Below are positions 54,095 through 59,842 of a stretch of 64,000 nt of DNA, piece after piece. Origin of the DNA: Patescibacteria group bacterium. GTDB taxonomy: Bacteria > Patescibacteriota > UBA1384 > UBA12157 > JAENIV01. The stretch lies in contig JBEKTP010000001.1 in the NCBI GenBank assembly GCA_049515915.1, positions 6,855-70,854 of the forward strand, given 5' to 3'. Numbering within the stretch: the first letter of the stretch is position 1; each line of letters begins with the position of its first letter. Position numbers and translations under genes: made by a program. The notes below the pieces were generated by a model. It saw only the letters and a list, made by a program, of their open reading frames with translations. It was not told the origin of the DNA and ran no database searches.

Positions 54095-54388
54095 TTTAAA
54101 TTACGAGATATTTTTTTCAGTGTCTTAATAGTTGTTCTAACCTAATACCTCCAAAATGGAGAAAGGTTTTCTCGGTCTATTAGTACTCCTCGGCTGAACA
54201 TCTTACGATGCTTACACCTAGAGCCTATCAACCCTGTGGTCTACAGGGAACCTTAACGAAGTCTAATCTTAAGGCGGGCTTCCCGCTTATATGCTTTCAG
54301 CGGTTATCCCAACCGAACATAGCTACCCAGCAATGCCCTTGGTAGGACAACTGGTACACCAGAGGTTCGTCCGCTCCGGTCCTCTCGT

Positions 54389-54691
54389 CAAGTGCATCCT
54401 TTATTTCTAAAGGCTTAGACTATATCTTCATCCGCCAGGTGGCGGAGTCGGCGTGTGATACCAATATAATTCGATTACCATCAAATTGGTATCTCGATCT
54501 TTCGATCTCAGTCGTTACGGGGTCACCCCGATTAATATCAGGGGACTTCCCACGGTATTCCCTTTCAAAACTTATGGTTTTTTAAGTTTCTTGAAATTTC
54601 ATTAAACCATAGATTTCATGAAGGCTCCACCGTTATTAGCCGAATTTTCAATCCCGATTACTCGGGAAAGTAGCAATGCGCTTTCGCGCCT
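54389..54691 (-). mobile_element. group I intron 1 in 23S (ORF-less, about 300 nt), inserted between CCUAGU and ACGAGAGGACC (sarcin-ricin loop region)
   Basis: The exon junction was reconstructed from flanking conserved 23S sequence. The group I core S-element GATATAGTC (plus agactatatc at 54417-54426) lies ~30 nt before the 3' splice G. It shares the internal GGGGTGACCCCGTAACGAC element with introns 2 and 3. Confidence 0.65.
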
Positions 54692-54750
54692 ACTAGGAGC
54701 AGACCCTCTCAAACTTCAACGATCACAGCAGATTAGGACCGAACTGTCTT

Positions 54751-55868: not shown

Positions 55869-56425
55869 AGGTGCCAAACCGCATCGTCTATGTGGGCTAT
55901 TGGATGCGATCAGCCTGTTATCCCCGGAGTAGCTTTTATCCGTTGAGCTCTGGCCATATCACTTTGTGCCAGAGGATCACTAACCCCAACTTTCGTTGCT
56001 GCGCGACTTGTAGGTCTTGCAGTCAAGCTGGCTTATGCGTTTGCACTATCGCTCTGATTTCCATACAGAGCTAGCCAACCTTTGGGCGACTCCGTTACAA
56101 TTTAGGAGTCAACCGCCCCAGTTAAACTACCCACCTGACACTGTCCCTTCGTTCATTACGAGGGTTAGAATCAAACTCCCAACAGGATGGTGTTACACTT
56201 TCGTCCCCGAAGGGACTCCCATCTGCTCTATACAATTGAAAATTTAATTCAATATCAAGCTATAGTAAAGCTTCACGGGGTCTTTCCGTCTTGCTGCGAT
56301 TAACCGGCATCTTTACCGGCATTGTAATTTCACCGAGCCCTTCCCAGAGACAGTTTTCAGATTGTTATGCCATTCGTGCGGGTCGGAACTTACCCGACAA
56401 GGAAATTCGCTACCATAGAACGGTT

Positions 56426-57137
56426 CATTTGTGTTTATGGCTGATTTTACAGCCCTGTATGTCTCCATACAGATCGGACTATATCATCCCACCTTGCGGC
56501 GGGTCTAGCGTATAGTCTCTGAGGATTCTCCATAAATATCCTTAAAACAATATTTTCTTGTTCTGCCAGCACCAACATTCAATTTCTCTCTTAAGAAAAC
56601 TATCTCTCGCAAACCTTTATCTGTTAAATGCTCACCATTCATTAGATTGGCTATCTGACAAAATATTTTGAAATTTTGCTTTTTACTTGCGGAGAAAAAA
56701 TTAAACTTTCTAAAGAATGGGATTATTTTTTCTTTAATCATCGCAAAGTTACAAACGTCATATATAAATAATCCATCTTGTCTCCGTTTAATTTTTCCGC
56801 AACCTAAATATCGTTTCATTATGGTGAGAATAGTTATATCTCGTTGAGAAACATTAAAGCAAAGACACACTTGCCATTTTTGCTTGTAATCTTGTTTATT
56901 TCTCAATGAAACATTAAAACTTCCTTCACCATCAACAAATCCTGCAAAATAGTAACCTATTTTATCAGGAATTTGTTTGAGCCAGTTTTCGCTCACTTGA
57001 CCTCCTTTGGAGCCTTTCCTGCTGATTGTCTCTATTCTTTGGATTTTTAGGTATAGTTAACTATTCTATAACCTACCAAAGACTTAACAAGATTTTCCAG
57101 CATATAGCTAGATTTTATAACTACTAACCGTTATTTA
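56426..57137 (-). mobile_element. group I intron 4 in 23S with LAGLIDADG ORF, inserted at GGUAACUAU^AACCGUUCUAUGGUAGCG (L1917-region site)
   Basis: The spliced junction restores the conserved CGTAACTATAACGGTCCTAAGGTAGCG-like sequence. S-element GATATAGTCC is at 56476-56485. Confidence 0.7.
56505..56996 (-). CDS. LAGLIDADG homing endonuclease encoded in 23S group I intron 4
   Basis: 163 aa with the motif YFAGFVDGEGSFNVSL. Confidence 0.8.
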   Translation of the reverse strand: MSENWLKQIPDKIGYYFAGFVDGEGSFNVSLRNKQDYKQKWQVCLCFNVSQRDITILTIMKRYLGCGKIKRRQDGLFIYDVCNFAMIKEKIIPFFRKFNFFSASKKQNFKIFCQIANLMNGEHLTDKGLREIVFLREKLNVGAGRTRKYCFKDIYGESSETIR

Positions 57138-59842
57138 ATAGTTACCGCTGCCGTTCACTAGGGCTTAAGTTCAAGCCTAGCTCTGACTTGCGTCAGAAGA
57201 TCAGCTCTCCCCGTAACCTACTAGCACTGGGCAGGCATCAGCCCCTATACATCCCCATAATGGGTTCGCAGGGACCTAAGTTTTTGCTAAACAGTCATCT
57301 GAAATACGTTTGTTGCAGCCACCTTACGGTGGCAGTGCTTCTCCCGAAGTTACACACGCTTTTTTGCCGAGTTCCTTTGGGAAAGTTAGCTCGATCACCT
57401 TGGTATCCTCTACCCATCTACCTGAGTCGGTTTGCGGTACGGGTGCTAAAAGGAGTGGATTACAGCTTTTCTCGTCACCGCTTCAGCCTTACCTTTCAAC
57501 CATACGATTGGCAGACCTCTACGATGCGTCACTGTAATATAATCTTTTAACAGTCGACGAATATCAACGCCGTGTCCATCGCCCTCGCGGGCTTAGGCCC
57601 GACTAACCCCCCGCCGATTATCGTTACGGGGGAAACCTAAGATATTTGGTGGGCAGGTTTCTCACCTGCCTAATTCGTTACTCATACCAACATTCTCACT
57701 TCTTGGCCGTCCAGCAAACCTCACAGTTTGCCTTCACCCAGCCAAGAACGCTCCCCTACCACTCCAGTAAACTGGAGTCCGCATCTTCGGTGATAGTTTT
57801 GAGCCCCGATGAATTTTCGGCGCCACAAACCTTGACCAGTGAGCTGTTACGCTTTCTTTAAAGGATGGCTGCTTCTAAGCCAACCTCCTGGTTGTCTAAG
57901 GATTGTGACATCCTTTTCCACTTAAACTATACTCTGGGACCTTAGATGGCGGTCTGGATTCTTTTCCTTTTGACTGTGAAGCTTAGCCCCCACAGTCTGA
58001 CTGCTCGAAAATCCAAAACGGAATTTGGAGTTTGATTAGCCTTCCGGCTTTCGCCGGAATAAGCCATCCAGAGCTCTACCTCCGAATTTTAACTTCGAGC
58101 GCTATACCTAAATATATTTCGGGGAGAACCAGCTATTTCCGGGTTCGATTAGCATTTTACCTCTATCCTCAAGTCATCACATAGCTTTGCAACGCTATAG
58201 CGTGCGGGCCTCCCTCACAGCTTTCGCTGGAGTTCACCCTGCTCAAGGATAGATCACCCGGTTTCGGGTTTAGTGTATGCCACTAGCGCCCTTTCGGACT
58301 CGGTTTCCCTATGCCTTCCCACAAAAAGTGGTTAAGCTAACGCGACATACAGCTAACTCGTTGGTTCATTCTACAAAAGGCACGCCGTCACCCTTGCGGG
58401 GCTCCGACTCCTTGTAAGCATATGGTTTCAGGTACTATTTCACTCCCCAATCAGGGGTACTTTTCACCTTTCCCTCACGGTACTAGTTCACTATCGGTCA
58501 CGGAAGATATTTAGCCTTAGGAGATGATCCTCCCATCTTCCTGCTGGATTTCACGTGTCCAGCAGTACTTGCCTTTACGTCTCAAAGAGACGCAAAGTAA
58601 TGATGGCAGTAAAAGTTTACTTTTCGCTTACGGGACTGTTACCCTCTTTGGTCGTCCTTTCCAGGTTCATTTAGCTAAATAAACTCACTTACCATCATCA
58701 GGCTGTTCCCTTTTCGCTCGCCACTACTAAGGGAATCACATATTGGCGCAAACCTTTCGGCTCGCGCGAATATCTCACTTTTGGTGAGTCTTGTTTTCTT
58801 TTCCACGCCTTACTAAGATGTTTCAGTTCAGGCGGTTCCCTTCCGGTTCCACCTTCCCGACACGAAATGATTGTAAAGGCCTTTTAATTTGGATCCTATA
58901 ATTTAATAGATCCTAAAGGCTCATCTCATGCCGGGAATGCGAAACCGGACTGTCGCCTCTTCGGCGACCGGGTTGCCCCATTCGGAAATCTTCGGATCAA
59001 AGGATGTTTGGCTCCTCCCCGAAGCGTATCGCACGCCTACTGCGTCCTTCATCGGTCTTCCATGCCTAGGCATCCACCTTATGCTCTTATTGAAAACCAA
59101 ATATTAGGTAGAACAACTACCAAGACACTGAATACTTCACTTGTTAAAGTTCAATGAGATAGTCGGATCATCAGATAATCTGATATTTTAAACCTCATCA
59201 ATTAATTCTCTGAATATCTGACCATCTCTAAACCAAAAACCGCCTTTCGGCGGATGAAACACAACTCAAAATTTGGATTTAAGTTTAAGTTTATCCGTCG
59301 ACCCCCTCGAATAATTTGTTGCTAATATACATCAGAAATGACTCCTTATATTCGTCTGAATTAATTTTAACAAGACTCAATAAATTTGTCAAGCAAGGTT
59401 AAAAGTGAGGTGGCGCCCGCCTTGATGGCGGGCGCCGTAGAAATCATGGCGAGAAGCTTGTATTTGTGATTTGTAGGTCTTGGTGGATACATCTGATACG
59501 TATAACAAGCTTCTCGCCAATACTTTGAGACGAAACGGTCGGGGGCCTGTAGTCAGGCCCCCGACCTCCCGAGGCCGGAACTGTCAAGCTCAAGTCAGGA
59601 AAGCACAGTCGGGGTTAACCCGGTCCGCTCTCCCGAAGAGCGTCTGACTGCGATCCGATCGCTCGGGCCCGCCATCAACCAACAACTCGAGAGGGCGGGT
59701 TTAGCGAACGAAGCAACAACTGCCCGGCCCGTTTCTGTTTTTGTGGGATGATGGCCTCATTCAAAGACACAAGTAATCACATTATACAAGTTTTTTGGCT
59801 CGTGTCAAGATAGACATTATTTCTCTTTAAAACACAAAAAAC

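Follow-up and report, generated by a model that had tools for sequence, protein, structure and literature searches.

A 23S ribosomal RNA (rRNA) gene on the minus strand of a 64-kb stretch of bacterial DNA (from contig JBEKTP010000001.1; the whole stretch is hereafter referred to as the window) is interrupted, with a probability that we put at about 0.9, by four group I introns, located at sites L1917, L2500, L2596 and L2656, two of which contain homing-endonuclease genes. The gene extends from position 59100 to position 54163 and has 4,938 nucleotides (nt), including four insertions with a total of 2,037 nt, and the spliced 23S rRNA would have about 2,905 nt. The host is most likely a member of the Patescibacteria, or Candidate Phyla Radiation (CPR), an assignment that we make with moderate confidence. 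Numbering and the exon map were obtained by blastn against rrlH of Escherichia coli (E. coli) MG1655, which gave five exon blocks with breaks at E. coli positions 1917/1918, 2500/2501, 2596/2598 and 2657/2657. These collinear blocks reach down to 54285, and the helix-1 pairing of TTGGTTTTC (59100) with GAAAACCTT (54163) defines both ends of the gene. The Rfam model LSU_rRNA_bacteria matched the same strand with 1837.8 bits, in an alignment with its 3' end at 55378. This 3' end was rejected, since the blastn exon blocks continue beyond it and the gene ends at 54163; it is an artefact of the covariance model being forced through the insertions. The 6.1-kb rRNA region is found with 99.98-100% identity in three independent assemblies (ENA ERZ27250060, JGI 3300038417 and JGI 3300018020), and the gene structure is therefore not an assembly artefact. 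The gene is composed of the following segments, given in the direction of transcription.

57138..59100, minus strand: exon 1, E. coli positions ~1-1917; its 3' end, ...GGUAACUAU, lies in the loop of helix 69 (H69)
56426..57137, minus strand: intron 1, 712 nt, group I, after U1917 in the H69 loop; ends in G
55869..56425, minus strand: exon 2, E. coli positions 1918-2500
55556..55868, minus strand: intron 2, 313 nt, group I without an open reading frame (ORF), IA-type, after U2500 in the peptidyl-transferase loop
55460..55555, minus strand: exon 3, E. coli positions 2501-2596; 90.6% identical to E. coli over 96 nt
54751..55459, minus strand: intron 3, 709 nt, group I, IA-type, after U2596 in the tetraloop of helix 93 (H93); ends in G
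54692..54750, minus strand: exon 4, E. coli positions 2597-2656; starts with AAGACAG (G2597A) and has the 3' end CUCCUAGU
54389..54691, minus strand: intron 4, 303 nt, group I without an ORF, between U2656 and A2657
54163..54388, minus strand: exon 5, E. coli position 2657 to the 3' end; starts with ACGAGAGGACC

The four insertions share the features of group I introns. At all four 5' splice sites, as read from the sequence, the last exon nucleotide is a U that stands opposite a G in the first paired segment, P1. The P1 pairs are AACUAU/GUAGUU in intron 1, with a U1917·G wobble, GGCACCU/GGGUGCU in intron 2, GUCGU/GCGAC in intron 3 and UAGU/GCUA in intron 4, and the guides of all four introns recur in homologues at the same sites. 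The element GATATAGTC, which forms J8/7 and a strand of P7, has exactly four copies in the 64 kb, where 0.08 would be expected. All are on the minus strand, one per intron, at 29 nt upstream of the intron 3' end in three introns and at 51 nt in one. Introns 1, 3 and 4 end in the terminal guanosine (omega G), with the tails ...AAAUG, ...AAGCG and ...ACUUG, respectively. An earlier note on this DNA, made without database searches, had described a 4.9-kb 23S gene with four group I introns of about 2.0 kb in total and an element common to all four near their 3' ends. The exon map bears out its gene coordinates, intron count and total intron length, the element is indeed found once in each intron, and supported core pairings from P3 to P7 are present in all four, together with the wobble in P1.

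Introns 2 to 4 have a common architecture that consists of P1, a GUAA-capped P2, P3, P4-P5, P6, P7, P7.1, P7.2, P3', P8, J8/7, P7', P9.0 and P9. The string CCCCGTAACGAC occurs three times in the window, once in each of these introns, while the full string GGGGTGACCCCGTAACGAC is found in introns 2 and 4 only, intron 3 reading TTTCCCCGTAACGAC. The helices P7.1 and P7.2 are located between the 5' strand of P7 and P3'. They consist of a GAAA-capped P7.1 and a 9-bp P7.2 in introns 2 and 4, and of equivalent hairpins in intron 3. Such extra helices are the hallmark of subgroup IA in the Michel-Westhof classification, to which the I-CreI intron belongs. With P7.1 and P7.2 present, introns 2 to 4 could be described as IA3-like, a label given by resemblance only.

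The pairings of the intron 2 and intron 4 family were examined in 11 sequences, nine ORF-less homologues and the window introns 4 and 2, aligned with MAFFT. In the proposed structure 81% of the cells are paired, compared with 66% after shuffling and 37-43% when the 3' partners were slid, and none of 500 shuffles matched the observed values. Double-sided changes are found in 40 of the 64 pairs. P2, P3, P5, P6 and P9 covary strongly, with compensatory changes in three of the five pairs of P3. Pairing is complete (100%) in P4, which hardly varies, and reaches 94.5% in P7, where the four core pairs are invariant. This support applies to the helices other than P7.1, P7.2 and P8, which vary in length and were aligned poorly by MAFFT. 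Furthermore, the 3-bp P9.0 that precedes the terminal G covaries across the approximately 97 L2656 introns among the matches listed in the scan given below (GCG/CGC, ACA/UGU, AAG/CUU and GUG/CAC).

Several points weigh against this reading of the gene. The covariance-model check that the earlier note had proposed had a mixed outcome. With the Rfam model Intron_gpI (RF00028), which has a gathering score of 50 bits, intron 2 scored 66.2 bits, the highest of the four, while introns 1, 3 and 4 remained below the gathering score, with E-values from 3.5e-7 to 5e-3: 38.0 bits for intron 1 (E=3.5e-7), 32.2 bits for intron 4 (E=1.9e-5) and two partial matches of 25.4 and 24.0 bits for intron 3. The model is weak on ORF-bearing introns and on IA-type introns with P7.1/P7.2, and the structure was therefore tested directly, as described above. 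Intron 2 does not have the terminal G (omega G) that is normally needed for the second splicing step; its terminal A lowers confidence only in canonical second-step chemistry of this intron. Splicing of the four introns is something that we infer from sequence and predicted structure. A protein-database search with ORFs spanning the spliced junctions, an indirect probe for cDNA or intron-less alleles of which a negative outcome is uninformative, returned only rRNA-derived ORFs of other bacteria, with identities of at most 86%. Finally, the taxonomy of the host is based on one line of evidence, 23S similarity: the exons are about 70% identical to E. coli and, among the fetched loci, at best 82% identical to a CPR-type metagenome-assembled genome (MAG).

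Intron 4 lies within the bulged-G motif of the sarcin-ricin loop, and its structure comprises the following helices.

UAGU with GCUA (54674-54671), minus strand: P1, with a U2656·G wobble
54667-54652, minus strand: P2
54643-54639 with 54452-54448, minus strand: P3
54632-54628 with 54557-54553, minus strand: P4
54546-54522, minus strand: P6
54513-54509 with 54422-54418, minus strand: P7
54507-54496, minus strand: P7.1
54493-54457, minus strand: P7.2
54446-54431, minus strand: P8
54413-54398, minus strand: P9
AAG with CUU, then the terminal G, minus strand: P9.0

To see how common this site is, GTDB representatives, with one genome per species, were scanned with the pattern ATAGTC-N10-40-G followed directly by ACGAGAGGACC, which gave at least 120 matches. 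An intron with the 3' architecture of intron 4 is present at the sarcin-ricin site in at least 97 genomes, almost all of them Patescibacteria MAGs. Among the matches listed there are 63 complete L2656 introns besides that of the window, which have 296-889 nt, about 46 of them being of ORF-bearing size. The earlier note was thus right to place an intron near the sarcin-ricin loop, precisely between U2656 and A2657, but its description of the site as unusual holds only against classical lists of intron sites, given the at least 97 species-representative genomes that share it. Position 2657 of 23S rRNA has been listed as a hotspot of introns and LAGLIDADG genes in CPR bacteria (Tsurumaki et al. 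2024, PMC11270868), and the site is new only relative to older intron catalogues.

Some of the taxonomic labels met in this survey deserve a remark. Five MAGs labelled as Gammaproteobacteria or Pseudomonadales (L035, L069, L079, L096 and L107) carry the sarcin-ricin intron, one of which (L079, OZ246397.1) is a complete 615-kb chromosome. Their 23S sequences are 69-75% identical to E. coli; at only about 70% identity these labels are doubtful and probably wrong. Many MAGs labelled Saccharibacteria among the matches listed also carry the L2656 intron, and their labels may be unreliable. Another record, a 2.9-kb 'E. coli plasmid' (NZ_AP027616.1), is essentially one 23S gene of another bacterium and does not have the sequence of the E. 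coli 23S 5' end.

Intron 1 differs from the others in that it lacks P7.1 and P7.2, and it is therefore not of subgroup IA. Its P3 is composed of UCUAGC (57112-57107) with GCUAGA (56509-56504), its 7-bp P7 of GACUAUA (56517-56511) with UAUAGUC (56483-56477), and its P8, capped by a GNRA loop, of segment 56503-56488. In eight other L1917 introns these three helices have compensatory variants, with covariation in P3 and P8; the P3 strands there read, for instance, UUCGAC/GUCGAA or UUUGGC/GCCAAA. The intron contains one ORF.

56505..56996, minus strand: ORF of intron 1, 163 amino acids (aa), single-motif LAGLIDADG, motif FAGFVDGEGSF

The ORF sits in P6 and extends into the ribozyme core, with its TAG stop (56507-56505) within P3'. 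It has a GTG start, and AAAGGAGG is located at 57008-57001, five nt upstream. The protein matches Pfam LAGLIDADG_1 (PF00961) as one domain with 72.9 bits (cut-off 23.1). Against the PDB it aligns to each half of I-SmaMI/I-OnuI-type enzymes, with E-values of about 1e-18 to 1e-21 per domain, and to the I-Vdi141I-like, homodimeric enzyme of an archaeal rRNA intron (PDB-id 3e54; 1.8e-18). Its relatives in 23S genes of other CPR bacteria have 50-58% aa identity.

Intron 3 is placed at L2596 by the pairing of its guide GCGAC (55450-55446) with G2592-U2596, which ends in a U2596·G wobble. Splicing after U2596 would change the H93 tetraloop from GUGA to GUAA, which is a GNRA loop. The earlier note had proposed L2593. 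This site was rejected, as one nucleotide of H93 would be lost and the wobble would be gone; the guide pairing and the restored GNRA tetraloop argue for L2596. True L2593 introns of other CPR genomes have the guide GCGUUC, while other L2596 introns (loci L062 and L233) have the guide GCGAC and a canonical G2597. The 5' and 3' parts of intron 3 align with introns 2 and 4, and the pairing UUGGC with GCCAA in its P3 represents a compensatory change. This intron also contains an ORF.

54880..55344, minus strand: ORF of intron 3, 154 aa, single-motif LAGLIDADG of the I-CreI/I-MsoI/I-CvuI family, motif YIAGFLDGDG

The first listed in-frame start is a GTG at 55407 (175 aa). The ATG at 55344 is the likelier start, and the resulting 154 aa match a 154-aa gene call in locus L133. 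The ORF is located within P6 and its TAA stop (54882-54880) is the UAA of J6/7, directly before P7. The protein matches LAGLIDADG_1 as one domain with 49.9 bits (cut-off 23.1). In the PDB its best matches are I-CvuI (4.4e-22), I-CreI (9.7e-22) and I-MsoI (2.2e-21), aligned end to end over 140 residues, and the alignment with these three enzymes includes the acidic residue of the LAGLIDADG motif as well as the KLK..KQA segment. Among the fetched loci its nearest relatives, with 48-53% aa identity, are the ORFs of L2593 introns of CPR genomes. With intact single-motif ORFs in introns 1 and 3, the two LAGLIDADG homing endonucleases named by the earlier note are well supported as predictions. The target of I-CreI, which we take to be 5'-CAAAACGTCGT joined to GAGACAGTTTG, is a pseudo-palindrome of 22 bp that has its dyad at the 2596/2597 junction. 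Intron 3 would thus have shifted by 3 nt and come to lie at the centre of the sequence that its enzyme family cleaves.

Intron 2 has A as its last nucleotide. It ends in ...GGAUUAAGGUA followed by CGAUG of exon 3, with ...GGUA directly before C2501. No shift of the boundary gives both the joined exons GGCACCU-CGAUG and a terminal G, and the same holds for the loci L062, L072 and L081. The G at position -3 was rejected as the terminus, as it would leave a UA insertion, or C2499U/U2500A, in the peptidyl-transferase loop; it is ruled out for AUAUA tails, which have no G there, and intron-less alleles never show such a sequence. Among the fetched loci, all 38 intron-less alleles of canonical length have GGCACCUCGAUG without a UA insertion; in one further match GA replaces U2500. 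A metagenome scan for the L2500 architecture (loci L137-L256) gave a sample of 114 family members, which are the 120 matches minus six T-ending exon matches. Of these, 65 end in ...UA before CGAUG and 49 end in G. Where the intron ends in A, P9.0 is formed by the three nucleotides preceding that A and the three that follow GUC-N, and its middle pair covaries (ACA/UGU and AUA/UAU). The 5' ends are alike in A-ending and G-ending L2500 introns, and comparison of the G-binding strands of P7 in the two forms revealed no compensating change, P7 being identical. P10, which in the window pairs CAUUG with C2501-G2505, abuts P1 on the guide, so that U2500 and C2501 are juxtaposed.

The copies of ORF-bearing size provide further evidence on this lineage. 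Of the 43 A-ending copies that are large enough for an ORF, at least 30 have retained one of at least 140 aa, and those inspected encode a double-motif LAGLIDADG protein of about 195 aa. The inspected L2500 copies (L144, L146, L081, L154 and others) encode LAGLIDADG proteins of about 195-213 aa with a double motif (LGDGY... and ...MDDGS), unlike the single-motif enzymes found at 1917, 2593/2596 and 2656. Intron 2 is a derivative that lost this double-motif ORF. We tentatively propose, as a possibility that we would not yet favour, that the L2500 introns include a widespread and evolutionarily active group I lineage that ends in A, is excised exactly before C2501 and performs the second step without a terminal guanosine, or else that the peptidyl-transferase centre has an unprecedented tolerance. 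For such a second step (omega A), P9.0 and P10 might provide the only positioning, or a protein might assist. A simple omega-A reading has against it that many A-ending tails equal G-ending tails with UA added, e.g. AGUAAUG compared with AGUAAUGUA, which could point to the G at position -3, rejected above, as the true end. A literature search for group I introns with a terminal A, and for the sites L2656, L2500 and L2596, found nothing relevant.

The terminal A could also mean that intron 2 cannot ligate its exons, which would leave either a 23S rRNA broken at 2500 or a gene without function. In tRNA introns of CPR bacteria, a change of the terminal G to C blocks ligation, and the intermediate of intron and 3' exon accumulates (PMC13011429). 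We consider this outcome unlikely. The A-ending form makes up more than half of the sampled L2500 family, as given above, endonuclease ORFs are kept in most of its ORF-sized copies, and P1 and P10 on the guide bring U2500 beside C2501. Moreover, since one rRNA copy per genome is usual in CPR bacteria, a dead peptidyl-transferase centre would be lethal.

The relations among the introns were studied by comparing the cores of 203 introns from four sites, with P1 and the ORF/P6 region removed. This comparison covered 109 L2500 and 68 L2593 introns; the eight L1917 homologues mentioned above come from a separate comparison. The core of intron 2 is nearest to L2500 introns of other genomes, with up to 78% identity, and that of intron 4 to L2656 introns of other genomes, with 71%. 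The core of intron 3 is nearest to L2500 and L2593 introns elsewhere (72-74%), and is 71% identical to one other L2596 intron. Compared with each other, the cores of the window have only 60-64% identity. There is one segment in which introns 2 and 4 are nearly the same.

55692..55750, minus strand: patch of intron 2, comprising J5/6, P6, J6/7, the 5' strand of P7 and P7.1
54491..54551, minus strand: patch of intron 4, the counterpart of that of intron 2

The two patches have 55 identical positions over 59 and 61 nt, respectively, and are common to introns 2 and 4 alone; their P6 and P7.1 sequence is in no other of the 203 introns. As judged from the sequences, the patch fits a gene-conversion tract between two ORF-less introns, as opposed to transposition to new sites, and the exchange may possibly be linked to the loss of the endonuclease genes.

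The earlier note had suggested that one intron family spread within the gene. A recent spread of a single intron that gave rise to introns 2, 3 and 4 could draw on their shared IA-type architecture and motifs and on the patch, which is not seen elsewhere. Outside the patch, however, the cores of introns 2 to 4 are all nearer to introns of other genomes than to their gene-mates. In addition, guides and P1 extensions are specific to each site and common to orthologues at the same site, and the endonuclease of intron 3 groups with those of L2593 introns. Such a spread is thus quite improbable, and we retain a local sequence exchange between introns 2 and 4.

Expansion segments and RNase III-type intervening sequences, which would be kept or excised without ligation, are known in bacterial 23S genes and common in CPR bacteria, and this same 23S gene has a hairpin of that kind in its helix 9/10 region. 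To explain the four insertions in this way is very improbable, given the group I core, the P1 wobble and the J8/7-P7 motif present in each of them. The insertions break the H69, peptidyl-transferase, H93 and sarcin-ricin loops, where tolerance of extra sequence or nicks is not expected, and their removal restores the canonical sequence to the nucleotide. An assembly chimera, stitched at repeated intron segments from different genomes or rRNA copies, is scarcely credible: introns 2 to 4 share repeats, none of the 19 contigs with an exact match to the intron-3 ORF reaches 2 kb, and a 1.2-kb contig (ENA ERZ27250017 k141_385144) is a circularly permuted join with a 72-nt overlap that equals the intron 2/4 segment, but contigs of 118 kb, 133 kb and 75 kb from independent projects contain the same 6.1-kb region with four introns and the same flanking genes, and short contigs (L003-L011) bridge the adjoining intron-exon boundaries at 99.5-100% identity. 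The permuted 1.2-kb contig corresponds to window positions 54491-55764, its start continuing from its end.

With four group I introns, processing of this gene could be described as follows. The 4.9-kb precursor would be transcribed and each intron would fold into a group I core, in which the internal guide pairs with the 5' exon and holds its last U in the U·G wobble. Cleavage of the 5' splice site would come from an external guanosine bound in P7; with P1 and P10 holding the exons in line on the guide, ligation would then give a 2.9-kb rRNA that is canonical at the four sites, which are functionally essential. Single-motif LAGLIDADG enzymes of the homodimer type, predicted to cut intron-less alleles and so to drive homing, are encoded by introns 1 and 3. 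Introns 2 and 4 are ORF-less derivatives of lineages that have endonuclease genes elsewhere, and appear to have swapped a segment of about 60 nt from P6 to P7.1.

The surroundings of the introns have other features. In the helix 9/10 region there is an extended hairpin of about 80 nt, at 58935..58856 (minus strand). Folding within 58845-58965 gave a minimum free energy of -53.3 kcal/mol (z = -6.7). A second non-intron insertion in the 5' domain, of 51 nt, is found at 58739-58790 (minus strand), near E. coli position ~230, and about 100 nt are deleted within E. coli positions 1365-1600. These insertions and the deletion resemble RNase III-type intervening sequences and CPR-type rRNA reductions. 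Two other RNA genes were found with Rfam.

53977..54092, minus strand: 5S rRNA, Rfam 5S_rRNA, 88.1 bits, 70 nt downstream of the 23S gene
61641..61568, minus strand: tRNA-Ala(UGC)

The rRNA genes are outside a standard operon, the order being tRNA-Ala(UGC), two protein genes and then the 23S gene. The two are an ORF of 261 aa without a Pfam match and a gene for an MscS-like membrane protein of 225 aa. In the 64-kb window, which stops about 2.4 kb upstream of the tRNA-Ala gene, no gene for 16S rRNA was detected.

A 23S gene with four introns is an already catalogued pattern for CPR bacteria and is largely ordinary: in these bacteria group I introns and LAGLIDADG genes crowd into the single 23S gene, and the sarcin-ricin site is a regular hotspot. 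The gene is of value for annotation, since rRNA finders truncate such genes (the Rfam alignment here ended 1.2 kb early) and the intron repeats make short-read assemblers break or circularise. Three aspects go beyond the catalogue, namely the L2596 site at the dyad of I-CreI-type targets, which would document a 3-nt intron shift with a re-tuned guide, the clear sequence exchange between two ORF-less introns of one gene, and the abundant L2500 lineage that ends in A. Of all these observations, the last alone may be new. If it were found true by experiment, it would challenge the rule that exon ligation by group I introns needs a terminal G, and would offer a natural system for RNA biochemists.

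Comparison with the survey of CPR rRNA genes by Tsurumaki et al. (2024, J Bacteriol, PMC11270868) shows many likenesses. In that study 82% of CPR 23S genes have insertions, 45% of these being group I, and LAGLIDADG_1 is concentrated at positions 1917, 1931, 1952, 2593, 2604 and 2657, several of which, including 2657, had not been seen in other bacteria before. Such insertions are removed from transcripts, according to Brown et al. (2015) as cited in PMC11270868. As in the window, the 3' half of the 23S gene has a cluster of several group I introns, introns with single-domain LAGLIDADG_1 proteins stand beside ORF-less ones, the 5' domain has short insertions like intervening sequences, and the rRNA gene is single and often unlinked. 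Window sites 1917, ~2593 and 2657 coincide with listed hotspots (sites 23IS6-14), while no numbered site of that study could be equated with 2500. In contrast, PMC11270868 does not describe the combination 1917 + 2500 + 2596 + 2656 nor discuss splice-site nucleotides, and an intron of the 2593 type is placed here at 2596. Furthermore, almost no introns are reported there for Saccharibacteria, whereas many MAGs with that label carry the L2656 intron in our scan. Related 23S genes (loci L084 and L128) carry other sets of introns, at 1931, 1951, 2504, ~2604 and 2656.

The classical bacterial 23S group I introns are Cbu.L1917 and Cbu.L1951 of Coxiella burnetii and the L1931 introns of Thermotoga and Simkania. 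Like intron 1, the Coxiella intron is a group I intron after U1917 with a LAGLIDADG gene, a likeness by description only, and its host is a reduced-genome bacterium with a single rRNA operon. These bacteria have one or two introns, compared with four here, and are not known to have one in the sarcin-ricin loop. The 23S intervening sequences processed by RNase III, in helices 9, 25 and 45, are resembled by the helix 9/10 hairpin, but the four introns differ from them in having ribozyme cores and in being located in conserved single-stranded functional loops. A close parallel to intron 3 is Cr.LSU, the intron of the Chlamydomonas reinhardtii chloroplast large-subunit rRNA gene that encodes I-CreI, which is located at L2593 and belongs to subgroup IA3. 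Both have a single-motif LAGLIDADG enzyme (E ~1e-21 to 1e-22 for I-CreI, I-MsoI and I-CvuI), the IA-type helices P7.1 and P7.2, and a position in the same H93 region of 23S rRNA. However, intron 3 sits 3 nt downstream, after U2596, with its guide re-tuned to GCGAC, its host is bacterial, and its ORF has diverged to about 35-45% aa identity to the solved enzymes.

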